DNA from: Candidatus Hydrogenedentota bacterium
GTDB taxonomy: Bacteria; Hydrogenedentota; Hydrogenedentia; Hydrogenedentales; SLHB01
Reading direction: 5' to 3'
Length of the DNA: 64,000 nucleotides
Assembly (NCBI GenBank): GCA_963668025.2
Contig: CAXXTH010000017.1
Coordinates: 1,216,001 to 1,280,000 of the forward strand
The notes below the pieces were generated by a model that did not search any database, was not told the DNA's origin, and saw only the letters and a program-made list of their open reading frames with translations. Shown piece after piece: positions 38,357 to 49,413 of this stretch; positions within the stretch are counted from its first letter, which is position 1, and each line of letters starts with the position of its first letter. The position numbers and the translations under genes are program-made.

Positions 38357-38725
38357 TCAGGCGTTCTTCAGCTTGCTCACCAGCCGTGTGATCCATAGGT
38401 CGATATACGAATCGCCCAGCTCTTTCAAGACATCCACGCCCGCCGTGCGGCCATATTCGACAGCCGTTTGGCGCGCCATGCTCCGGGCCTGCTCACGCTC
38501 CTGCGCCGTCAGCTTTCCGTCCTCACGCGCTTGTTTCAATTGCTGCACATAGGTGCGGTAGGTGGCGTCCACCGCAGCTTCAACGGCTTCGACCGCTGTA
38601 TAGTAGCGTTGTTTTTTCACGCGGGCGAACCAGTCGCCCGTCTTGAACATAGCCCACAATCCCCCGACCAAACTGCCCACTGCAGCCACCACTTGGTCCG
38701 CTTGAATCACTTCCGCCAGCACCAT
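38357..38725 (-). CDS. Putative holin (single N-terminal TM)
   Basis: One TM segment then AVEAAV...DGKLT..E amphipathic region; follows the peptidase. Confidence 0.6.
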   Translation of the reverse strand: MVLAEVIQADQVVAAVGSLVGGLWAMFKTGDWFARVKKQRYYTAVEAVEAAVDATYRTYVQQLKQAREDGKLTAQEREQARSMARQTAVEYGRTAGVDVLKELGDSYIDLWITRLVSKLKNA

Positions 38726-38742: not shown

Positions 38743-39237
38743 TTATTGTCCCCGTTCCCGGTTGTCCGCATGCACATGCCCGTCCCGGTAATCATCCTTC
38801 ACCCAATCGAAATGCCGCCTACACGCCGCCCCCAACACCTGCTGGGGAATACGCACCCGGCCGCGCACCCGCACAGCCGCCAAATCCACCGCAATGCCGC
38901 CGAACCGCGCCAAATGCTTCGACTGCCGCGCCACCGCGCCGCCTTCATCCGCCCAGCCCAAACGCCGCGCCAGGCGCTCGAGATCCGCCTGTGTCCGCAT
39001 GGCGTCCGTTACCACGAGCCAGACTTCTTCGCCCGCCGCCGCGCACAGTTCCCTCCGCACCCGTTCGAGAGACTCGATGACGCTCCGGTGGACCATGCAC
39101 AACCCTTCGCCGTTCTCGAATTCCTTCAGCCGGAAATGCGCCAGCGCTTCGCCGTCCACGTCCACCAACAGGCGCAGGTCATTACGCCCTTTATACGAAT
39201 TCCCGCTTGTCGATGATGTATCCATTGGTTCCGTCAT
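38743..39237 (-). CDS. M15-type Zn peptidase (putative endolysin)
   Basis: HFRLKEF, LERVR, R, SKHL...AVD and HVHAD: His/Asp/His zinc-ligand pattern of M15A; start uncertain. Confidence 0.78.
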   Translation of the reverse strand: MTEPMDTSSTSGNSYKGRNDLRLLVDVDGEALAHFRLKEFENGEGLCMVHRSVIESLERVRRELCAAAGEEVWLVVTDAMRTQADLERLARRLGWADEGGAVARQSKHLARFGGIAVDLAAVRVRGRVRIPQQVLGAACRRHFDWVKDDYRDGHVHADNRERGQ

Positions 39238-39712
39238 CCGTTTGGTTAATGGCCGACATGCCCAGCCGTAAAAATAGGTGCGCCAATGGAATGCAGTCCG
39301 TGTCAGGCGTTGGCGCGGATGGAGAGGCCGACTCCGTTCCAGTTTTTACACTGACATCCCACGTTCCCAGCCTGGCCTGCACCAGATCGAGCCGCACGCC
39401 AGTCAATGGTTCCGGTACGGCAGGCGTCTGCACGGATACATCCAAGTGGTATGGCAGATGGGAAATGAACGCCCAACCCGGCTGCACCATTACCGACATT
39501 CCCGGCGTAGCGCTAGGTATAACCTGCAAATCCGATTCCGCCGCCCCGCGTATCACGCCGTCGCCGCCGCCCCATGCCAAATTCAACAAATAACATACCC
39601 GTTCAAGCGCCGCCTCGATGCGGTCATCCCACAAGTTCAATTTCGCCGACGACACGGGCCGTTCCTGAAATGCCCACGCCGTCTTGATGTACGCTTGCCC
39701 CTTAATCGCCAT
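39191..39712 (-). CDS. Putative baseplate/minor tail protein
   Basis: GMSVMVQPGWAFI, RLDLVQARL, KTGT..ASPSAP, IPLA and I.D.R pattern of siphophage minor tail proteins. Confidence 0.65.
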   Translation of the reverse strand: MAIKGQAYIKTAWAFQERPVSSAKLNLWDDRIEAALERVCYLLNLAWGGGDGVIRGAAESDLQVIPSATPGMSVMVQPGWAFISHLPYHLDVSVQTPAVPEPLTGVRLDLVQARLGTWDVSVKTGTESASPSAPTPDTDCIPLAHLFLRLGMSAINQTDDGTNGYIIDKREFV

Positions 39713-39741
39713 CTTGCCCTCCATGCCGTCCCGGCAGGCGT

Positions 39742-41475
39742 TCATGCATCTAAATGCAGCCCCGCATCCAGCGTTATCGCTTCTTCATCGAGTGAAAACG
39801 CGCTCAGATAATCGGCTCCCGGTTGATTCGCTTGCAGGAATCCCAGCGGTTCCGCCACCGAACGCAACGGAGAGGCCAGTTCCGCTACCGTCTGCACCGA
39901 ACGCCCAGACAAACGATGGGATACCCGCGCCACCCGGCCCGCCAGCCTCCCTGCGAACCGGCTTCCCCATTCGCCGTCCAAGGGCGCATCCAGCCGCTTC
40001 AATGTGCTTCCACGCACTTCAATGATATCGCCCGCATCAAGGTGGGCATCCCCAGCGTAAAATTCGATGGTTCCCACACACCCCGGATACGCCACATCAT
40101 CCAGCAGCCCCGCCGCCAGCCGGTCCGCATCCTCTTCAAGCCGTAATGCGGACACTTCCAGGCTAGATGCATGCGCACCCAGCAGCGCCACGCTCTCCGC
40201 GCGCACATACGTTTTTCGCAGCGCCCCACCCACGGGATCGCTCGACAACACCAGCTCATTCACGATCCCTTCCGAGGAGGCCCCCAGTTCAACGCCCGTC
40301 CGCGTACGGTTCGCAAATGCCACACGCTTTACCTGCGCCGGACCGAACGACACGGCCCCGTCCACATCCAGGCTCCATACATGGCCGCCCGCCGCGTAGG
40401 CGAGCAGCGCCAGCAATCCGAATAATCCGCCGTCATAATCCAGACGTCCCAGCACGGTTGCCGCACCCGATACCGAATCCGTGTTTGCCGTGCGATACGA
40501 CAGAAAATCCTTCAGCGCCATCTCCGGCTTGAGCAGCGCGCCATTTTCCGGCAATTCCACATCCGCCGCGCCTTGCTCCACCATCGCCGCGTTCACGCAT
40601 TCTCCGCCGCCATACGCCAGGCCCACATACCGGCCCGCCGCATCCATCCGGAAGTCATATGCTCCCCGCGCGTTCCGGTGCGGGTTCAGTTCGACGTAAT
40701 CCACGCCCTTTTCATCGAGCCAGGCTTGCAGCGCCTCTTTCGCCGTTTTAGCATTCAAGGCATATCCGCTTGCCGCATACCGCGCCGCCGTCCATTCCTC
40801 CGTCTCCGGATGGCGCGCCACGGCTTCCGCATCGAGCGCCAGAGATTCACAGTCCAACATGAGCAACCGCAAATCTGGCCACGCCACGCCGTCCACTACA
40901 AGGCCCGCGATGGTGCGCCCATCTTTCGCATAGGCCCCGCTGGCATCCACGCGCACCCCGCCCGCCCATTGGCCTGAAGCAATGCCGCCCACTGCCAATG
41001 CATTTCCGTCTGTCTTGCGCGTCAGAAACTTTTGATACTCCCGCCGCGCCCCATCGGGATACGCCTCATGCGCCACGTTGTAATGGATGGGGCTTATCGC
41101 GCGCTGAATGGCGTCCTTCACGATGGCCCCCACGGTCCGGTTCTGGTAGAGCTGCGAAAGGGCCACATCCGCGAACCGCGCTTCCGTCTCGAACGCCACC
41201 AGTTCATGGAATCGCACATATCGGTCCAGGATTAGCTTCTTCGTGTCGCTCCATCGCGCCGACGCCTGGGTGACGTACCCAACGCAGGCCTTCCGGCCTT
41301 CGAGCCACAACTCGACCCGGTAGCCTGGCCCCAGCGTATCGATGGACACGGGCAGTAATCCCGCGATATGGTCCGCTTGCCCGGCCCATGCCCGTTCCGC
41401 GTCGAGGAGCGGCGCTTCGTGAAACCGCGCCACGCGCCGCCCCCACGTGTCATACACATCAATCCGGTAATCCAC
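39742..41475 (-). CDS. Putative tail hub/Tal-like protein with inserted thermonuclease-like domain
   Basis: Follows the Dit-like gene; WSLDVDGAVSF, IVNELVL, ESVALLG, LDAGDIIEV and RVARVSH hub-like motifs; insert DGRTI/RLLMLD/DAAGR/VNAAMVEQGAA. Confidence 0.65.
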   Translation of the reverse strand: MDYRIDVYDTWGRRVARFHEAPLLDAERAWAGQADHIAGLLPVSIDTLGPGYRVELWLEGRKACVGYVTQASARWSDTKKLILDRYVRFHELVAFETEARFADVALSQLYQNRTVGAIVKDAIQRAISPIHYNVAHEAYPDGARREYQKFLTRKTDGNALAVGGIASGQWAGGVRVDASGAYAKDGRTIAGLVVDGVAWPDLRLLMLDCESLALDAEAVARHPETEEWTAARYAASGYALNAKTAKEALQAWLDEKGVDYVELNPHRNARGAYDFRMDAAGRYVGLAYGGGECVNAAMVEQGAADVELPENGALLKPEMALKDFLSYRTANTDSVSGAATVLGRLDYDGGLFGLLALLAYAAGGHVWSLDVDGAVSFGPAQVKRVAFANRTRTGVELGASSEGIVNELVLSSDPVGGALRKTYVRAESVALLGAHASSLEVSALRLEEDADRLAAGLLDDVAYPGCVGTIEFYAGDAHLDAGDIIEVRGSTLKRLDAPLDGEWGSRFAGRLAGRVARVSHRLSGRSVQTVAELASPLRSVAEPLGFLQANQPGADYLSAFSLDEEAITLDAGLHLDA

Positions 41476-41494
41476 CGCACACCCCGCTGTCCGT

Positions 41495-42172
41495 TCACCA
41501 CCACCGGTCCCGGAACGCCACCGTGACATCCGCCGCATGTGAGCCTCCCGGCCCATCCGCATACGCCAGCGCCGTTCCGCTTGGCGCAATCACGGGAAAC
41601 AGGCCCGAGGTATACGGCGTCACGTCCACGCCTTCCAGCGTGGCCCGTTCCGCCACGCCGTCCAACACGAGCGACTGCCCATCCGCCACCGTGCCCGCAT
41701 ACGCAATCGTCCGCACGCCATCGCTGAACGAAGGATTTTTCACCGTTCCTACCGCCACAAGCGTGATCACGACGGGTGAATTCATATTGCCTTGCGCGTT
41801 CAATGTCCGTATGGCGCTTGCGGTGCGTATTTGCCATGCCGTGGCCCGCTCCACCTCTGACTCCTCGAAAGGCTCCCGCGCCGACAATTGCAGCGTAAAC
41901 GAAGCCGCCAGTGGTTGCGCCGACACTTCCCGTGTGAATCCCGCGCGCCGCACCCACATCCGCCGTCCGTCACGTAGCGACAACGCCGCCGAATAGTCTT
42001 CCGCCGAAGCCACGTTCACGATGGCGTCCAATTGGGCTTCCGCGTCCGCCACATTCACGAGAAGGCCCTGAATCTCGATGGACCGTTCATCCCGGCCGCC
42101 CACCTCTTCGAGCTTCTCCTGCGCATGAGTGTGCAGTGGGTCCAGCGCCAGCGCCCCCAGCGTGATCCCCAT
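41495..42172 (-). CDS. Putative distal tail (Dit-like) protein
   Basis: FTLQLSAREPF, GNMNSPVVITL, NPS, GQSLVLDG, GLFPVIAPSG and FRDRWW: Sipho tail-family pattern. Confidence 0.72.
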   Translation of the reverse strand: MGITLGALALDPLHTHAQEKLEEVGGRDERSIEIQGLLVNVADAEAQLDAIVNVASAEDYSAALSLRDGRRMWVRRAGFTREVSAQPLAASFTLQLSAREPFEESEVERATAWQIRTASAIRTLNAQGNMNSPVVITLVAVGTVKNPSFSDGVRTIAYAGTVADGQSLVLDGVAERATLEGVDVTPYTSGLFPVIAPSGTALAYADGPGGSHAADVTVAFRDRWW

Positions 42173-42175
42173 CGC

Positions 42176-42592
42176 CTACGCCTCCCTCAGCACGGACTGT
42201 GTATCCGTCACGTCCGCCACGGCCCGCGCGGGACGTTCCGCGCCCGCCGGTTCCAGTAAATACCACGCCTGGTCTTCGAGCCACGCCGCCATGGTCATCA
42301 GCGCCTGGAACCGGTTCCCGTCCGACACCACGTTCGATCCCAGCGACACCTGTTTCACGTCAAACGCATCTTTGGCCGCCAGCGCGCCATACAGCCGCGC
42401 CCCCGCCAGCAGCGTCTCACCCGCCACGAGCCCCTTATCCGGCGGGTCTATTTCCGCATCCGGGTCCAGCCTCCTCAACACCTCGCCGTGTGCTTCCTCA
42501 ATCACTTGTTCGATCAGTTCCGATGGAACGCGCGCCGCATCCCCAAGCTGGAACCGCTCCCGCACCAGCGCCTCAGTCGTAAACGCCGCCAT
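42176..42592 (-). CDS. Putative head-tail adaptor
   Basis: 138 aa; FTT...VR...SELIEQVIEEAH.EV N-terminal helices; first gene after the capsid. Confidence 0.6.
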   Translation of the reverse strand: MAAFTTEALVRERFQLGDAARVPSELIEQVIEEAHGEVLRRLDPDAEIDPPDKGLVAGETLLAGARLYGALAAKDAFDVKQVSLGSNVVSDGNRFQALMTMAAWLEDQAWYLLEPAGAERPARAVADVTDTQSVLREA

Positions 42593-42737: not shown

Positions 42738-44083
42738 CATAAGCGCTAACCTTATATTGCCTCCATCAAACCACGCAACTGTTGCATTCGCTTCCTTGGG
42801 GGCTCTGCCAGATCTCTCGCGATTTCCCGCCACTGGCTGATGCATTCGGATAATCCAAGCGTCGGATTGACCGCTTGGCGAAGGAGGTGCAAGGCGAAAG
42901 AGAGTTCGCGCCACAAGGAGGCCTCGCGGTAGATATCGTCACAGTGGATATCCCCAGGGGGAAAAAAAGCGCCCCTCATCAACAATGGCCTGGGCAAGGC
43001 AGGAGACAAGCATTTTGCCGTGGAGCCAAGCCTTGGCCGACTCCTCGTCTTCCTTTGGCAAGTGTCCCAATCCCATAATCGACTTCATCCGTTTGAAGGC
43101 CAACTCCACCTGCCAGCGCGCCCGGTACAACTCGATAACCTGGTGCGGCGATATTGAATCCGGCAAGGATGTGGCCAGTATGACGTAGCGATGCAGCACA
43201 AGCGTTTCGGGATCCAGACTCCGTTGCTTCTTGCTTAGCTCTTTCTTCGCCCGGCGGATGCTTTGCGCGGCGGCTTCCTCGCTCAAACGCAGCGCACAGA
43301 TCCGTAGCGCCAGCTCCTCCTGCCCCTTTGCCTGGCCAATCAGGGCCCAATCACCCACTTCCCCTACCTCTAGAGACGCCACCAATCCAGCCAGTGGACA
43401 GGTGTTCCCTGCGCCATTCCGAAGACTGAAGGCTTTATTCTTAAGACGCGTCAGAAAGTTCCCGTTATGGCCGAGCACATAACGAAAACCTTTGAGATGC
43501 CCATAAGCACGATCTCCGAGCAATAGGTCGCCAGGCGAGACTCGGAATCGCGCGAAACTCTCTCCAACCTTCGGGCCGGTAATATGAAACTCATCGCATT
43601 GAAGACCGTATAAACATAGGCTGTAGTGAACGCGCCAGTCCGTTCCCGTGCTTCCCGGTTCGCAGACAACGCTCGCATCCACGACGCGAACACGGTAATA
43701 CTCCAGCCATGCAGGCCGAACGCACGGTCCCGCGCGACGTTGAAGTATCTCTACGGCCATCCACCGCAGCCATTCCCCCGAAGCACGCAACCGCTTAAGA
43801 AGTGCCACATCCGACACGGACGCCACATTCCCTTCTCGAGCACGAACGACAGCCTCACGCAGAGAACACCCATCCGCCAAATGGATCAACAGCAAGCGCA
43901 GGAGCGATTCCGTCGACGATATAGAACGAGGCTTGCGGTGCCACGCGCCCAATTCACGAGCCTTGTCCTCCCATCCAGCAGGGAGAAAACGCTGTAAACA
44001 CTGCCAATTCTCATTCCACGCTGCTTCCATGCACCCAGTATAGAAGATTCGTCAGGAGACATCAAATAAGGTTAGCGCTTATG
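42738..44083 (-). mobile_element. IS4-family insertion sequence (1346 bp), 11-bp target duplication GGGGTCCGGGG
   Basis: Perfect 18-bp IR cataagcgctaaccttat / ataaggttagcgcttatg; TSD at 42727-42737 and 44084-44094. Confidence 0.92.
42939..44030 (-). CDS. IS4-family DDE transposase
   Basis: VVDAS, LGDRAY and YRARWQVELAFKRMKS (YREK) motifs. Confidence 0.92.
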   Translation of the reverse strand: MEAAWNENWQCLQRFLPAGWEDKARELGAWHRKPRSISSTESLLRLLLIHLADGCSLREAVVRAREGNVASVSDVALLKRLRASGEWLRWMAVEILQRRAGPCVRPAWLEYYRVRVVDASVVCEPGSTGTDWRVHYSLCLYGLQCDEFHITGPKVGESFARFRVSPGDLLLGDRAYGHLKGFRYVLGHNGNFLTRLKNKAFSLRNGAGNTCPLAGLVASLEVGEVGDWALIGQAKGQEELALRICALRLSEEAAAQSIRRAKKELSKKQRSLDPETLVLHRYVILATSLPDSISPHQVIELYRARWQVELAFKRMKSIMGLGHLPKEDEESAKAWLHGKMLVSCLAQAIVDEGRFFSPWGYPL

Positions 44084-44136: not shown

Positions 44137-45180
44137 TCAGCTCCAATCGCTCCGCACCACCACGCGGGCCTTTTCGTAGATCACCGCGAAGTCCGTCACC
44201 ACTGTCAGGTAGGTGCGATCCCATTGCTGGTTGATCAGCTTGTCGCTCTCCACCAGCAAATCCTGCTCCGTCAGCTTCTGCACGGCATACCGCGCATCCA
44301 AGATCGTTAGCTTGTTCGCAGGCTGCTCCGCCATGGGCACCAGCTTCGCCCCTAGCGGCGTCGGCAGTTCGCCCGACTGCGCGAAATTAAACAGCGTCGC
44401 GTCCTCGAACGGCTCCAGTTGCAACAACGCTTGCACCAGCGCCGCATCCGCCAGCATATGCGTCGGACGAAAGTAATGATCGAGCGCCAGTTTCATGTAG
44501 CCCTTCAAGATGTCCCCATACGCCCATGTCCCCGCCGTGGCCGTGTTGATCGACACCGGAGCCGTATCGCCGCCCGACGAATCCCCCTCCGCCAGCACCG
44601 TGGCCAGCCGTGCATCGAGATTCCGCCCCAGGCGTTCGCCAATGCGTTGGAGATGCACCCGCAGCACTTCCATCGACATGCGGCGGATCACCTCATACGA
44701 CGCGATCACTCCTCGCCCCTTCTTGTCCAGCCGCACCACGCGGTCTCCATATGTGATTTCCGACTCCGGGATTGAAGCCCCTTCCGCCACGTACATCAAT
44801 TCTTCCTGCGCCGCTGATTCCTGCACATACGGCACATCCACCGCCGCGCTTTCCACCGCCTGATCGTTCATGATCAACTGCGGATACATCGGCTTCGACT
44901 TCATCCCCGCCAGCACCGATTCCCGTACCATGTCCGGGAACAGCCATTTCGCGTTCGGGTCTGATTGGAAAAACCGGTCCACCGTGATTTTGTTCACGTC
45001 CACGCCGAACTCCGCCGCGCAGTAGTCCGCCGCATTCGTCCCCAATGCGCGGAAATACTGCCCATGCGATAGCCCCAGCGTGTTCAATGTTTCATACAGC
45101 TCGCGACCCCGGACCTGCCGCAGCCGTTCCGGCTCCTGACCCAAAAACGCCACCCGTTCCTTCATTCGCTCATGCGCCAT
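44137..45180 (-). CDS. Major capsid protein (HK97-fold)
   Basis: 347 aa; VAEGASIPESEITYG..VVRLDKKGRGVIASYEVIRR...LD HK97-like E-loop and spine helix. Confidence 0.88.
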   Translation of the reverse strand: MAHERMKERVAFLGQEPERLRQVRGRELYETLNTLGLSHGQYFRALGTNAADYCAAEFGVDVNKITVDRFFQSDPNAKWLFPDMVRESVLAGMKSKPMYPQLIMNDQAVESAAVDVPYVQESAAQEELMYVAEGASIPESEITYGDRVVRLDKKGRGVIASYEVIRRMSMEVLRVHLQRIGERLGRNLDARLATVLAEGDSSGGDTAPVSINTATAGTWAYGDILKGYMKLALDHYFRPTHMLADAALVQALLQLEPFEDATLFNFAQSGELPTPLGAKLVPMAEQPANKLTILDARYAVQKLTEQDLLVESDKLINQQWDRTYLTVVTDFAVIYEKARVVVRSDWS

Positions 45181-45210
45181 CGTTCTCATTCCCCCATCAT
45201 GCAAATGGCT

Positions 45211-45585
45211 TCACAGCAGCACGTGCGCCGCTCCCAAGCCCGATTTCACCACGATTCCTGAACCACTCCCCGAAGCCGGGGCCTTCACCTTGCCCGCCGT
45301 AGCCGATACCGAAATCCCATGTATGCCATCCACTACCGGCGCATTGCCGTCATAGGCGAACACGCAGATCCCCCGCACCCGCACGGGAATCCCCATGCGG
45401 TTCTCCGCCGCGTCCGCCAGCGCTTCGCCGAACACCGGCGCTTCCGCGCCCGCCGTATTGCTCACCGTATACGGCCCCACCAGCGCCACCGCGTCGCCCT
45501 TGCGAATATTCACGTTCCCGGAGGCCGCTGTCTGGCAGGCAATCACCAGCTCCGTCACCGGACCCCCCACATCTCCATACGCCAT
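45211..45585 (-). CDS. Capsid decoration/cement protein (DUF2190-like), short paralog
   Basis: IRKGDAVAL...VFGEALADAAE...IPVRVRG pattern; directly upstream of the capsid gene. Confidence 0.7.
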   Translation of the reverse strand: MAYGDVGGPVTELVIACQTAASGNVNIRKGDAVALVGPYTVSNTAGAEAPVFGEALADAAENRMGIPVRVRGICVFAYDGNAPVVDGIHGISVSATAGKVKAPASGSGSGIVVKSGLGAAHVLL

Positions 45586-45597
45586 TCCGCGAACTCC

Positions 45598-46284
45598 TCA
45601 CCCTTCCCGGGCAATCGCCAGCGCCACATCGGCGCGTTCTTCCGCATCGAGCGCCTCTGGCTGTGACACCGGTTCCGGCGGGTATTTCTGGTCGAACCGC
45701 ACTTCGAAAGCCCGCAGTTGCCCATGCACCTCATCCAGGCTCAGCCCATCGAGGGCTTTCCGCCAGACCGACTCATCAAATGTGTCTCCGTCCAATTCGC
45801 GCCCCAGCCCGCAGAATCGTTCGATAGCCCGCCGCCGCGCCTCGATGCCATCCCGCACCAGCCGCGCCGCCTGCCCGGACTCCACGCCCGCGGCATCGAG
45901 CGCCGCGCATACCGAACGCACCACGCCCAGCGGCAATCCCGGCTCCCGTTCCACGCATACCACCTGCCGTTCCGCGCCCAGCAGTAAAAACCGCTGCTGT
46001 CCCGGCCGCCCTTCGAGCCAGTAATACGTCCCCGCGTCCACCCGAACGGCGTCCCGGTCGTCATCCAGCCATGCCAGCGGATGCGGACCCTTCGCCTCTG
46101 CCCAACGCTCCTCCTCGAGCCCGCCGCCTTCGATCCGCCAACCCAGCAGGAAGCCGTCCGACTCGAGCCGCAAATCCAAGTGCGGCCCTTCCGCGTCCCG
46201 GTGCCGGTGCAGCACGAAACGCCCTGTGGGCGGCCCTGCCTTCACGCCTTCCGCGCCCGCTTCCCGCGTGATTTTCCAATACAT
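45598..46284 (-). CDS. LigD-type 3'-phosphoesterase-like domain fused to a helical scaffold-like domain
   Basis: RFVLHRH...HLDLRLESDG.L.GW, HPLAWL and VDAGTY match the LigD PE pattern RFVxQxH..HYDxRLExDG..W / HP..Y / WDxGxY. Confidence 0.72.
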   Translation of the reverse strand: MYWKITREAGAEGVKAGPPTGRFVLHRHRDAEGPHLDLRLESDGFLLGWRIEGGGLEEERWAEAKGPHPLAWLDDDRDAVRVDAGTYYWLEGRPGQQRFLLLGAERQVVCVEREPGLPLGVVRSVCAALDAAGVESGQAARLVRDGIEARRRAIERFCGLGRELDGDTFDESVWRKALDGLSLDEVHGQLRAFEVRFDQKYPPEPVSQPEALDAEERADVALAIAREG

Positions 46285-46296
46285 CCAACGCCTCCC

Positions 46297-46488
46297 TTAC
46301 CGGAGCAACTGCTCCGCCAGCGCCGCCACCACGCACGCCAGATTCGCCACCAGTAACAGCACCCCGCGCGCCAGCGTCGCCTCGAGCCGCCGCACCCGCT
46401 CCTTCAACTCGAGCAGGTCCGCCTCCACATTCCGGAACTGCACCTCATACGCCCGCTCGTACGGGCATGGTTCACAATTCACGCTCAT
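46297..46488 (-). CDS. Small coiled-coil plus C-terminal TM protein (XhlA/holin-like)
   Basis: 63 aa; LLELKERVRRLE followed by a hydrophobic segment; GGAGG RBS. Confidence 0.6.
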   Translation of the reverse strand: MSVNCEPCPYERAYEVQFRNVEADLLELKERVRRLEATLARGVLLLVANLACVVAALAEQLLR

Positions 46489-46496
46489 GGCCCTCC

Positions 46497-47186
46497 TCAC
46501 TCCGCCGCCCAAGCCCGCCGCGTCCATATTTCGAGCGGGCGATGGTAGGCCGCGCGCGCCGCTTCGAGCGCCCGCTCCGCGTTCAATGCAGGCTCACTCG
46601 CCACGAATCGCGTGCCCTGCGACCCTGACGGCACCACCGAGCCTTCGATCACCTCCAGCACGTTCCGCATGATGTAATGGCACGCCGCATCACCATACGA
46701 ACGCCCTGGCACGTGGTCGCAGGTCCGCAGATCTTTCCCGCACACGCTGCACTCCGGCGTCTGGAACGAGAACCCAATCGACGTCTCGCGGTACACTCCG
46801 CCCTCGATGTTCAAGATGAATCCCTCGTTCTCCCGCGTCCGCAGCACATACACATCCGGCCGCACCGATACATGCTTCTCATCCCGGTGCAGCCGCGACC
46901 GGAAAAACGTCCCCCGTGGCAGCGAACCCCGCACGTCATGCCGCTCCATCAGCGGACGCCCCGGCGTCAGTTCGTTGATCTTCACCAGCTCCTCTTCCGG
47001 GAAACGGCTGAAATGGCGGTCCACCTGGTCATGGCACAAGTCCATGGTGAACGCCACAAATTCCTGGCGTTCCAGGGGGCGCAGCGCGAAGCGGTTCACC
47101 TCCGCCAGCGTCCCGTCGTCCGCCGCATCCGCGCGCATCCCCACCAGCACGCCCTCGTGCCGGAAAACGAACGGTTCCAGTTCCAT
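46497..47186 (-). CDS. Prohead maturation protease with Cys/His metal-binding insert
   Basis: VDR..SRF, LMERHD, ETSIGF, CSVCG...CDH.PG..Y...C and EGSVV motifs; lies between portal and capsid. Confidence 0.78.
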   Translation of the reverse strand: MELEPFVFRHEGVLVGMRADAADDGTLAEVNRFALRPLERQEFVAFTMDLCHDQVDRHFSRFPEEELVKINELTPGRPLMERHDVRGSLPRGTFFRSRLHRDEKHVSVRPDVYVLRTRENEGFILNIEGGVYRETSIGFSFQTPECSVCGKDLRTCDHVPGRSYGDAACHYIMRNVLEVIEGSVVPSGSQGTRFVASEPALNAERALEAARAAYHRPLEIWTRRAWAAE

Positions 47187-47245
47187 GCATCCCCCTTTGC
47201 CTTTTGCGCTTTTTGTGCCTCTTGTGGCTAGAAAAACTCGTCCAC

Positions 47246-47926
47246 CTACAGCAGCGTCCAAACATAGCCGCCGCCCACCGCCACCGCGATGGTGGCCGCC
47301 GCATCTGCTACATCCACCTGCGTGTTGTCCCAGTCATCCGCCGCCACAGTCACCACCGCGCCGTCCACTGTCGCCGTCACGCCCGTCACGCCATACGTGG
47401 CGTCATTGATCACCGAAGCCAGCGCCGCCGCATCCGCCGCATTGTCCCCGCTGATCGAATATTTCCGTTCCGAAGGCGTCGTCGCCGTGGCATGCGCTGT
47501 GAACGTCACTCCATTGATTGTCACGGCATCTCCCGCCGCCACCGATGTGAGCGTCAGATACCGCTTTGTGGTCTCCGTTTTCAGATTCCGGCCCGTCCCA
47601 TTGCCCGACGCGGGCGGCTTCACGATCCCCCGGTTCACCGAAGCCGCGACGCCCCGCAGGCCATCCGTGGCCGGCAGCCCGCTCGAGAAGCGGAACTTCG
47701 CCACGCCTGACACCAGCACCGGTATCACTTGCGCGTTCTTGGTGGCCGCCGCCATGGCCTGCCCGAAGACCACGTCCTCCGCCGAGAACTCGTTCGTCAC
47801 ACGGAAAAGCCCCGTCAGCTTCACCGCGTCCCCTTTTGCGATATTCACGCCCCCCGAATTCGGCGTCACCATTGTCAGCACGTGCCAATGCTCCTGCCCG
47901 CCAACACCCTTGCCATACGCCACCAT
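47246..47926 (-). CDS. Capsid decoration protein, long paralog with an ~100-aa inserted domain
   Basis: Aligns by eye to 45211-45585 (AYG.VGG, VNI.KGDAV.L.G, VFG.A.A.A, VK.PASG.G.G, terminal LL). Confidence 0.72.
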   Translation of the reverse strand: MVAYGKGVGGQEHWHVLTMVTPNSGGVNIAKGDAVKLTGLFRVTNEFSAEDVVFGQAMAAATKNAQVIPVLVSGVAKFRFSSGLPATDGLRGVAASVNRGIVKPPASGNGTGRNLKTETTKRYLTLTSVAAGDAVTINGVTFTAHATATTPSERKYSISGDNAADAAALASVINDATYGVTGVTATVDGAVVTVAADDWDNTQVDVADAAATIAVAVGGGYVWTLL

Positions 47927-47948
47927 GCCTAAATCCCCTTTCTTGTTT

Positions 47949-49193
47949 TCAGCCGATGCCAAGCGTGCGGGCCGCTTCCCCATGGGCCATAAAGCCCTGA
48001 TCCCGCAGCTTCACCGCATTGTCAATCGCCTTGCCCCGCGCCGACGCCTCCTTCAGCGCGTCCACCGTCCGGTTCTGCCGCATATGCACCCGCGCCCGCG
48101 CGCTGCCCCACATCAGCGCCAGCTCGAAGTTGTAGAGCCGCTCCAGAATCCGCTTCACGCTCCGGTTCACCGCCTCCACCTGCCGGTTGATGATCTCGAA
48201 CTGCGCCGTCCCATAGGTCTCCGTAGTCCCGTAGTTGCGACCCAGCAGGATAGGCATCAGGTGCGTTCCTGTGATCACTTGCTCCTCGATGGCCTTGTGG
48301 TTCTCGTAAAACACCAGGCCCTCCTGGCCCCCGCGCACCAGATTCACCTGCACGTTGTCATAGGTCACCAGATTCTGATCCACCTCGAGGCCCGACAGCT
48401 TTTCCCGCAGCCCCGCGAAGCTCCCTTCGACCCGGTTTCGGTATGCCTCCGCCGATTCCCCCCGCTCGCGTGGCTCCGGCGCATACTGCACGTGCAGCTT
48501 AGGCCACCCCGCGTTATGCGCCGCCTTCGCCATGTCCTCCAGCAGCCGCTGCTGGATCTTCACCACGAACGGAATCGACCGTAGCATCGAACGCCCATAC
48601 GGATTCGTCCCGTCCCGGTCCAGGCCCACATACACGAAGCGCTCCTTCGGCAGCCGGACCTCTTCCCCGTTCACCACCTGGTACGGTTGTAAGCCCCCTG
48701 CTTCGCGCTTGAACCGCACCGTCCACACATCCACCGGAACCACGTCGTGGACGGACTCCCGGCTTTTCGACAGCACGATCTCGAGCGCCGCCGCCCCGTA
48801 CGTGAACAGCGACGCATAGAACACATCCAGCAGCCCGTCCATCCCCCGGTCGCCGCCGTTCACCCGCGTATCCAGCTCCCGCAGCAGACGCTCCGCGCGC
48901 CACTTCGCCACATCCGATGAAGGCTCCACGATCTCGATGTCGTAGCCCGTCTGGCATAGCCGCTTCCACGTCCACACCGCATCCGAGATATCCGGGATCG
49001 CATCCCGCAGAAACCGGTACACCGGCAGCATGAAAAACGGCGTCTCATTCGGCAGCCGCACGAACTCATGCGCGCCCATCCCCAGCGCCCGCACATCCTC
49101 CGCCACCGAAACCGCCCGGAATGTCTCCAGCCGCGTCCCCCGGGGCCGACTCTCTTCCTGCTTGCCCATCCAACGCTTCAGCCACTTCGCCAT
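47949..49193 (-). CDS. Phage portal protein
   Basis: 414 aa; SLFTYGAAALEIV, NPYGRSMLRS and EQVITGTHLMPILLG portal motifs; first gene of the block. Confidence 0.82.
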   Translation of the reverse strand: MAKWLKRWMGKQEESRPRGTRLETFRAVSVAEDVRALGMGAHEFVRLPNETPFFMLPVYRFLRDAIPDISDAVWTWKRLCQTGYDIEIVEPSSDVAKWRAERLLRELDTRVNGGDRGMDGLLDVFYASLFTYGAAALEIVLSKSRESVHDVVPVDVWTVRFKREAGGLQPYQVVNGEEVRLPKERFVYVGLDRDGTNPYGRSMLRSIPFVVKIQQRLLEDMAKAAHNAGWPKLHVQYAPEPRERGESAEAYRNRVEGSFAGLREKLSGLEVDQNLVTYDNVQVNLVRGGQEGLVFYENHKAIEEQVITGTHLMPILLGRNYGTTETYGTAQFEIINRQVEAVNRSVKRILERLYNFELALMWGSARARVHMRQNRTVDALKEASARGKAIDNAVKLRDQGFMAHGEAARTLGIG

Positions 49194-49413
49194 CGCACCA
49201 CCCCCCGCTCCATATCCATCATTCACCCTTTATGGCCACTCTGTTGCACAAATCCTATCCCGTAGCATGGGCGTCCCGCCCATGAAAACGCAGGATTTAT
49301 TACCAGCTAAAAAAGCGCAAGAGATCACAAACATCTTTTTGCGTCTCTTGCGCCTTTTGAGGCCAAATATCCCTTCTTGCCCTATCCCCTCCGCACGCGC
49401 TACAATCCCCGCC

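Follow-up and report, generated by a model that had tools for sequence, protein, structure and literature searches.

In the closest described head modules, those of tailed phages with protease-scaffold proteins, the genes follow the order portal, protease, scaffold, decoration, and capsid, and the scaffold is kept on the protease, as in a Moorella protein (P0412) and in Bacillus phage CUBc25 (XRA41832.1); gpI of phage Mu represents a further protease-scaffold type. Enzymes are also carried by other head proteins, and fusions of MuF or portal proteins with 2H, PBECR, or PRTase domains are known (PMC5512222). LigD-type phosphoesterases (PEs; PF13298, TIGR02777) are represented by the crystal structures of PaePE from Pseudomonas (3n9b), CkoPE (3p4h), and MbaPE (3p43). 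Polynucleotide ends are the substrates of characterized PEs; in archaeal PEs, alanine mutants of the five core residues abolish activity, and Tyr-to-Ala mutants retain 23% and 18% product formation via the diesterase step (PMC3082917). Tyr88 is required for the 3′-phosphomonoesterase step, in which it positions the water (PMC3082917, PMC3300020), and Arg14, Asp15, Glu21, and Glu82 are specific to this step (PMC3300020, PMC8656161). Furthermore, gene transfer agents (GTAs) have been delineated by Caudoviricete-derived particle proteins, endogenization, often at several loci, congruence between host and GTA trees, packaging of random host DNA but not of the agent's own genome, and delivery (PMC9662315), and GTA particles can provide templates for recombinational repair (PMC9632790).

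The gene considered here lies in a 64,000-nucleotide stretch of a genome of Candidatus Hydrogenedentota (hereafter, the window) and encodes a LigD-type PE barrel followed by a helical domain, very probably the prohead scaffold. The tailed-phage protease-scaffold systems share the gene order and a homologous helical tail with this locus, whereas the scaffold is here separate from the protease and bears an enzyme domain. As in the MuF and portal fusions, an enzyme would enter the head attached to a structural protein, although the carrier is here the scaffold and the enzyme a LigD-type PE (PMC5512222). We lean towards regarding the protein as the scaffold of a domesticated GTA-like particle of Ca. 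Hydrogenedentota, with a divergent, probably active phosphoesterase as cargo. Among the literature matches listed, no paper on the cluster or on a PE-scaffold fusion was found; "LigD" does not occur in the main texts of PMC5512222 and PMC7824862, nor does "Hydrogenedent" in PMC13626063.

The gene and its N-terminal barrel

The open reading frame at 45598-46284 (−) encodes 228 residues, including the motifs quoted in the first-pass annotation, and its annotated start is correct; ATG is used in 63 of the 64 loci examined, and a Shine–Dalgarno-like motif precedes the start in 59 of these 64. Promoter and terminator scans gave results at chance level only. A homologue search retrieved 381 proteins, and the best 120 of the 381 show 50-63% identity; those with a taxon name come mostly from Ca. 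Hydrogenedentota. The protein had no match among 50,697 phage records, none in PHROGs, and no LigD-like match among predicted viral structures. The two domains and the surrounding cluster genes are listed in Table 1.

Table 1. Cluster genes of the window and the two domains of the PE-scaffold protein, in order of transcription (counts refer to the 71 loci compared).
Feature	Position in window	Strand	Evidence and occurrence
Portal protein	47949..49226	−	phrog_3753, E 5e-47; 61/71 loci
Longer decoration-like paralogue	47246..47983	−	Between portal and protease only here and in L062 (L062:6171-6827)
Prohead protease without scaffold tail	46497..47261, likely start 47189	−	65/71 loci
76-aa protein, coiled-coil-like, hydrophobic C-terminus	46297..46527	−	61/71 loci
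LigD-type PE barrel, residues 1-116	45937..46284	−	Profile, AlphaFold model, structure matches
Helical domain, very probably prohead scaffold, residues ~117-228	45598..45936	−	Protease fusions; Moorella tail match
Head decoration-like virion protein	45211..45585	−	phrog_4588, E 6e-6; 64/71 loci
HK97-fold major capsid protein	44137..45204	−	phrog_3922, E 3e-49; HK97 gp5, E 3e-5; 61/71 loci
DDE transposase between capsid and neck genes	42939..44030	−	DDE_Tnp_1, E 2e-16; 0/71 loci, window only
138-aa protein, probable head-tail adaptor by position only	42176..42592	−	No family or PDB match; 44/71 loci
Distal tail protein Dit	41495..42172	−	phrog_33, E 7e-10
gp27-like baseplate hub with inserted staphylococcal-nuclease domain	39742..41589	−	Foldseek hub, E 4e-10; nuclease, E 6.7e-8
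Virion structural protein	39191..39745	−	phrog_5339, E 1.7e-5; 33/71 loci
Probable zinc-peptidase endolysin	38743..39237	−	Without supporting family match, motifs presumably M15-like; 23/71 loci
Holin-like protein, last gene of the cluster	38357..38725	−	phrog_13712, E 6e-4; 32/71 loci

Structural comparison identifies the N-terminal barrel as a LigD PE fold with virtual certainty. The AlphaFold model of the 228-residue protein (pLDDT 93.7) superimposes on 3p4h with Z 13.0 and an rmsd of 1.6 Å over 96 residues and on 3n9b with Z 10.8; the rmsd to the crystal structures of LigD PEs lies at 1.6-1.9 Å. Only two of 48,161 chains, both PEs, reached Z 8, the next match standing at Z 6.6, and all seven Foldseek matches at E ≤ 0.001 were LigD PEs. 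In the PDB, the top match of the single sequence was the archaeal PE 3p43 (E 1.8e-4), and the top five matches of the family profile were all LigD PEs (best E 4.7e-7); furthermore, 89 of 91 remote profile matches that were scanned carry LigD_N, i.e., are PE-domain proteins. The LigD-type PE domain proposed in the first-pass annotation, together with its overlay on the Pseudomonas enzyme, is thus borne out by structure, and the outcome with the LigD_N profile itself was divided: 106 among the best 120 of the 381 homologues match it at E ≤ 0.1, but the single sequence (E 0.01, 16.4 bits) does not reach the cut-off of 31.1. TIGR02777 gave E 4e-4 and 20.2 bits, below its cut-off of 144. On the tree, the PE-scaffold family forms a single clade (SH-aLRT 98) separate from canonical PEs. 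The barrel belongs to the LigD PE superfamily, and would work like a LigD PE, but falls outside the LigD 3′-phosphoesterase family proper (TIGR02777/PF13298).

Seven strands align in order with the PE barrel, and the structural alignments end before β8, at residue 147 of the Pseudomonas PE and residue 140 of the Methanosarcina PE, so that β8 is missing in sequence order in comparison with LigD PEs. The model contains an additional strand at residues 2-8 with a Trp that is conserved in 116 among the best 120 of the 381 homologues; among 101 aligned domains, 78 have Trp as the first residue of canonical β8, and in a tandem-PE protein the family profile places this N-terminus on the end of the repeat that precedes. 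To judge from the model, this N-terminal strand probably supplies the eighth strand in place of β8, and a circular permutation derived from a tandem repeat is plausible from the model, the alignment ranges, and the W-x-hydrophobic pattern. In a position-weight scan, only 2 of 120 sequences had their best β8-like window at the N-terminus, the framing being poor for the start Met, and a covariation test of the permutation returned noise.

The helical C-terminal domain

The first-pass annotation had described the last ~100 residues as helical and the gene as lying where a scaffold gene is expected. Both statements hold, since residues 119-227 are helical in the AlphaFold model and the gene is located between the protease gene and the decoration and capsid genes. 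Further evidence is provided by longer homologues of the protease, 9 of 25 of which consist of the protease joined straight to the helical domain without the PE (E 1e-44 to 8e-52); because these relatives fuse it to a prohead protease, the helical half is very probably a prohead scaffold. In most loci the protease terminates at its own stop, and it matches the "major head and protease protein" of phage Cormatin (E 3e-15). In L069 and L071, the protease-scaffold fusion is found inside the same cluster, with the 76-aa gene missing between the two parts. The direct fusions comprise L069:9293-10270, L071:9245-10216, and proteins P0389-P0397, from which the PE and the 76-aa gene are absent.

The tail of the Moorella protease fusion scores 20.5 bits against the helical domain, a value attained by none of 200 shuffles, and that of CUBc25 scores 7.3 bits, above 200 of 200 shuffles; five of the seven outside proteins did not pass this test, and in an initial profile comparison none of four phage regions reached significance (E 0.13-0.3). 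A comparison of the domain with solved structures gave no specific match (best Z 6.6), an atlas match to Mu-like protease clusters (0.85) is a lead only, and co-folding of the capsid protein with residues 116-228 scored 0.27 against a mark of 0.32. No conserved internal start that would give a scaffold-only product was found in the 64 loci examined; the PE should therefore enter the prohead and travel with the scaffold wherever it is present.

Gain, loss, and origin of the PE domain

The PE is an accessory domain that is dead or deleted in some lineages. It is deleted in nine proteins, has lost both metal histidines in L055, and is degenerate in frame in L068; the remaining loci with a non-intact PE include two cut off by contig ends and two without the domain. 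Five gains or losses are needed on the quick tree. A tree with the nine PE-less fusions as a single clade was not rejected (p-AU 0.836) and scored higher than the unconstrained one, and a tree with the fusions basal was not rejected either (p-AU 0.345), with very long outgroup branches.

A possible source is indicated by P0410, a presumably viral protein in which a protease of the same family is fused with an ATP-dependent ligase (E 7e-25) and a PE-like domain. This fusion suggests that the PE came from ligase-carrying head proteins, and the domain is likely a relic of phage head proteins uniting protease, ATP-dependent ligase, and PE. Two distant proteases, P0409 and P0411, resemble degenerate P0410-type proteins by eye. 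Elsewhere in the superfamily, P0185, P0187, P0194, P0238, and P0263 are proteins of 500-800 aa, presumably viral, with tandem PE repeats and mostly Trp at the Tyr site, which recurs there often together with Lys; in P0205, P0215, and P0219, a PE is combined with a primase-polymerase, 2H, or ligase domain. Small stand-alone PEs (P0177-P0268), in many cases 100-160 aa long, form a large clade in which Met mostly occupies the position equivalent to Arg52 and the last His is often followed by Arg.

Active site and predicted chemistry

By alignment, His28, His35, and Asp37 correspond to Pseudomonas His42, His48, and Asp50, and Arg39 and His68 to Arg52 and His84; the His/His/Asp metal triad and the Arg/His phosphate ligands are hence common to this barrel and LigD PEs. 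Among the best 120 of the 381 homologues, His28, His35, Asp37, and Arg39 are invariant (120/120) and His68 is kept in 119; all five are kept in 65 of the 71 loci and in 19 of 24 divergent representatives, the other 5 being degenerate. The His, His, Asp, and Arg residues and the His of HP listed in the first-pass annotation are accordingly genuine family features, and so is the suspected replacement of the Tyr of HPxxY: of 210 sequences pooled with some redundancy, 206 have Trp at the Tyr88 site and none has Tyr.

The remaining determinants differ from those of LigD PEs. At the Glu82 site, the eight commonest residues, none of them Glu, account for 209 of the 210 pooled sequences; the N-peptide (Arg14/Asp15/Glu21) is not matched, residues 6-20 being without conservation in the best 120 of the 381 homologues, and the lid loop of canonical PEs is deleted. 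By contrast, the same 120 homologues all have Asp30, Arg50, and Lys65, which are new in comparison with LigD PEs, and the family-specific, near-invariant Trp72 sits at the Tyr site. The barrel is, moreover, fused to the scaffold outside any NHEJ context. With the core intact and the monoesterase determinants gone, a metal enzyme other than a canonical 3′-phosphatase is predicted. Conservation makes it quite likely that the barrel is an active enzyme; its substrate is slightly more likely than not a nucleic-acid end. Since the monoesterase residues are missing and near-invariant Arg50, Lys65, and Trp72 have appeared, a diesterase or an altered substrate is predicted to be likelier than 3′-phosphatase activity.

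The loss of the lid loop and the monoesterase residues, together with the extra basic residues, indicates that the substrate may have changed, and the PE might be a delivered counter-defence enzyme that, in the recipient cell, hydrolyses signals made of small nucleotides or RNA ends bearing a cyclic phosphate. Such a role has been proposed for 2H and other head-protein fusions (PMC5512222). No conserved ligase or Ku gene accompanies the cluster, a point that also weighs against the main reading. This reading is nevertheless rather unlikely, because characterized PEs use polynucleotide ends (PMC3082917) and the nearest protease-linked relative, P0410, joins the PE with a DNA ligase.

The baseplate hub of the cluster bears on a second reading. 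This 615-aa protein combines a baseplate-hub fold with an inserted staphylococcal nuclease, and nuclease-bearing hubs occur in the window (39742-41589), at L036:6447-8177, and in 32 other loci. The catalytic positions are largely retained, with the Asp21-equivalent present in 30 of 34 hub proteins; the nuclease of the window is altered at two of these positions, and the copies in L026, L027, and L030 are also altered. Staphylococcal-type nucleases leave 3′-phosphates, and the intact nuclease that the cluster usually encodes would suit a true 3′-phosphatase that heals such DNA ends, the more so because the five essential residues are kept and the invariant Asp30, Arg50, or Lys65 could substitute for those lost. 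Nuclease and PE are, however, not co-retained: the PE is intact without a hub gene in L054, L058, L059, L061, and L063 and beside an altered nuclease in the window, L026, and L027, and in L069 the nuclease is present but the PE is not. Strict coupling of the two was therefore rejected. Moreover, terminase cuts leave 3′-OH, so packaging itself should need no end healing. With Tyr88, Glu82, and the N-peptide all missing, a 3′-phosphatase is improbable. The end-healing enzyme of the prohead envisaged in the first-pass annotation thus stands as to PE fold, metal site, scaffold, and entry into the prohead, but the healing of 3′-phosphate DNA ends is weakened by these missing determinants and further by the dispensability of the PE in some lineages.

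A non-enzymatic barrel that binds metal or DNA and aids assembly nucleation or the grip on DNA in the head would fit the gain of basic residues and the loss or degeneration of the PE where the scaffold stays intact. It is quite improbable, in that the metal and phosphate ligands are invariant and most of the surface is variable, as is typical of enzymes; a divergent, probably active phosphoesterase carried by the scaffold remains the preferred reading.

A conserved and probably domesticated gene cluster

When one genome per species was scanned, 71 loci were retrieved, one in each of 71 different assemblies. According to the record labels, 51 are from Hydrogenedentota, 14 from Nitrospiraceae or Nitrospirales, and 6 from other sources; the 20 records with another or no phylum label mix with the rest on the trees. 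The gene order is fixed, namely portal, protease, 76-aa gene, PE-scaffold, decoration, capsid, 138-aa gene, Dit, hub, structural gene, in some loci the peptidase, and holin. Individual genes were detected in 65 (protease) down to 23 (peptidase) of the 71 loci, many misses being due to contig ends. Pooled dN/dS values (10 pairs each) are 0.18 for the PE, 0.14 for the scaffold, and 0.10 for the capsid, with a range of 0.10-0.22 across genes, and the cluster is under purifying selection. The nearest phage capsid proteins are 25-33% identical, compared with 60-77% within the family.

The flanks vary between loci and contain host-type genes. Among 192 of 219 long flanking ORFs that were scanned against PHROGs, one integrase, one transposition protein, and four partial-length matches to tail or lysis families were found, and the surroundings of the cluster hold no conserved integrase or replication gene; genes of cellular type for replication or nucleotides were each seen at a single locus. 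No tail tube or tape-measure gene was found within the cluster. Of the 71 loci, 42 of which have at least 3 kb of upstream sequence, only 3 encode a large terminase (phrog_2, E 9e-23) close to the portal, together with a probable small subunit; the large terminase is absent from the 64-kb window. Four genomes encode both the terminase and the PE-scaffold protein at distant locus tags. Among the matches listed, terminase homologues are 67-77% identical, except for two near-self matches, and have intact motifs for ATPase and nuclease activity in 116-120 of 120 cases. The terminase loci L008:1894-3399, L024:4750-6291, and L050:4250-5728 represent three arrangements with interleaved host genes, the small subunit being probable.

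Several loci depart from the common layout. L054, L058, L059, L061, and L063 retain head and lysis genes and miss four neck and baseplate genes, including the adaptor, Dit, and hub; L039 and L048 keep Dit and miss the hub. A variable extra gene (median ~450 aa) is found between the protease and the 76-aa gene at L041:4148-5503 and in 20 other loci; its product has a hydrophobic N-terminus and no match in Pfam, PHROG, or NCBIfam. Six loci have a ~140-aa gene in the same region. In L020, L023, L031, and L043, the cluster is interrupted or split right after the PE-scaffold gene, with an integrase at this point in L043. In the window, the transposase insertion and the altered nuclease may reflect local decay of this copy.

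That the cluster represents an ordinary family of prophages, or a remnant in decay, and that the PE is incidental, as the transposase insertion and altered nuclease site of the window copy and the four clusters broken after the PE gene might suggest, is very improbable in view of the single locus per assembly, the fixed gene order, dN/dS values of 0.10-0.22, the lack of conserved integrase or replication genes, and a terminase that is conserved and unlinked. The module instead looks like a conserved domesticated cluster in many genomes of a phylum, a point that escaped the first-pass annotation. Caudoviricete-derived particle proteins are represented by the portal, capsid, Dit, hub, and terminase, and endogenization is seen in the variable host-type flanks and the distant terminase of the four genomes (PMC9662315). 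Phage-derived head genes fixed in chromosomes, split loci, and slow evolution are shared with the RcGTA type (PMC9662315). The cluster differs from that type in its phylum, in the absence of tail tube and tape-measure genes, in a mostly unlinked terminase, and in its nuclease-bearing hub. It looks like an undescribed domesticated, putative GTA-like particle, and on balance it probably transfers host DNA.

Proposed function and significance

For a scaffold of a domesticated GTA-like particle with a phosphoesterase as cargo, the following course may be proposed. The helical half would organize the capsid shell and carry many copies of the PE inside; the protease would then release the small barrel, which could stay with the packaged DNA or act during packaging. 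The most likely chemistry would be Mn-dependent trimming of blocked 3′ nucleic-acid ends, either of diesterase type or by an altered monoesterase in which Arg50 and Lys65 replace the lost residues. Such trimming would allow fragments of host DNA, once delivered, to be recombined or ligated. In its fullest and more tentative form, possible but doubtful as a whole, the cluster would be an undescribed, independently domesticated GTA with a very short tail or none, a nuclease-armed baseplate, and a permuted end-processing enzyme loaded by the scaffold, so that DNA would be delivered with the tool that readies its ends.

If this is true, Ca. Hydrogenedentota would hold a candidate GTA lineage outside the few groups with established particles, and the scaffold would represent a new route for loading an enzyme into a capsid. 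The remodelled active site offers a small soluble variant of the LigD PE that bears on the residues separating monoesterase from diesterase activity, and the lineages in which the PE is missing or dead are natural controls.
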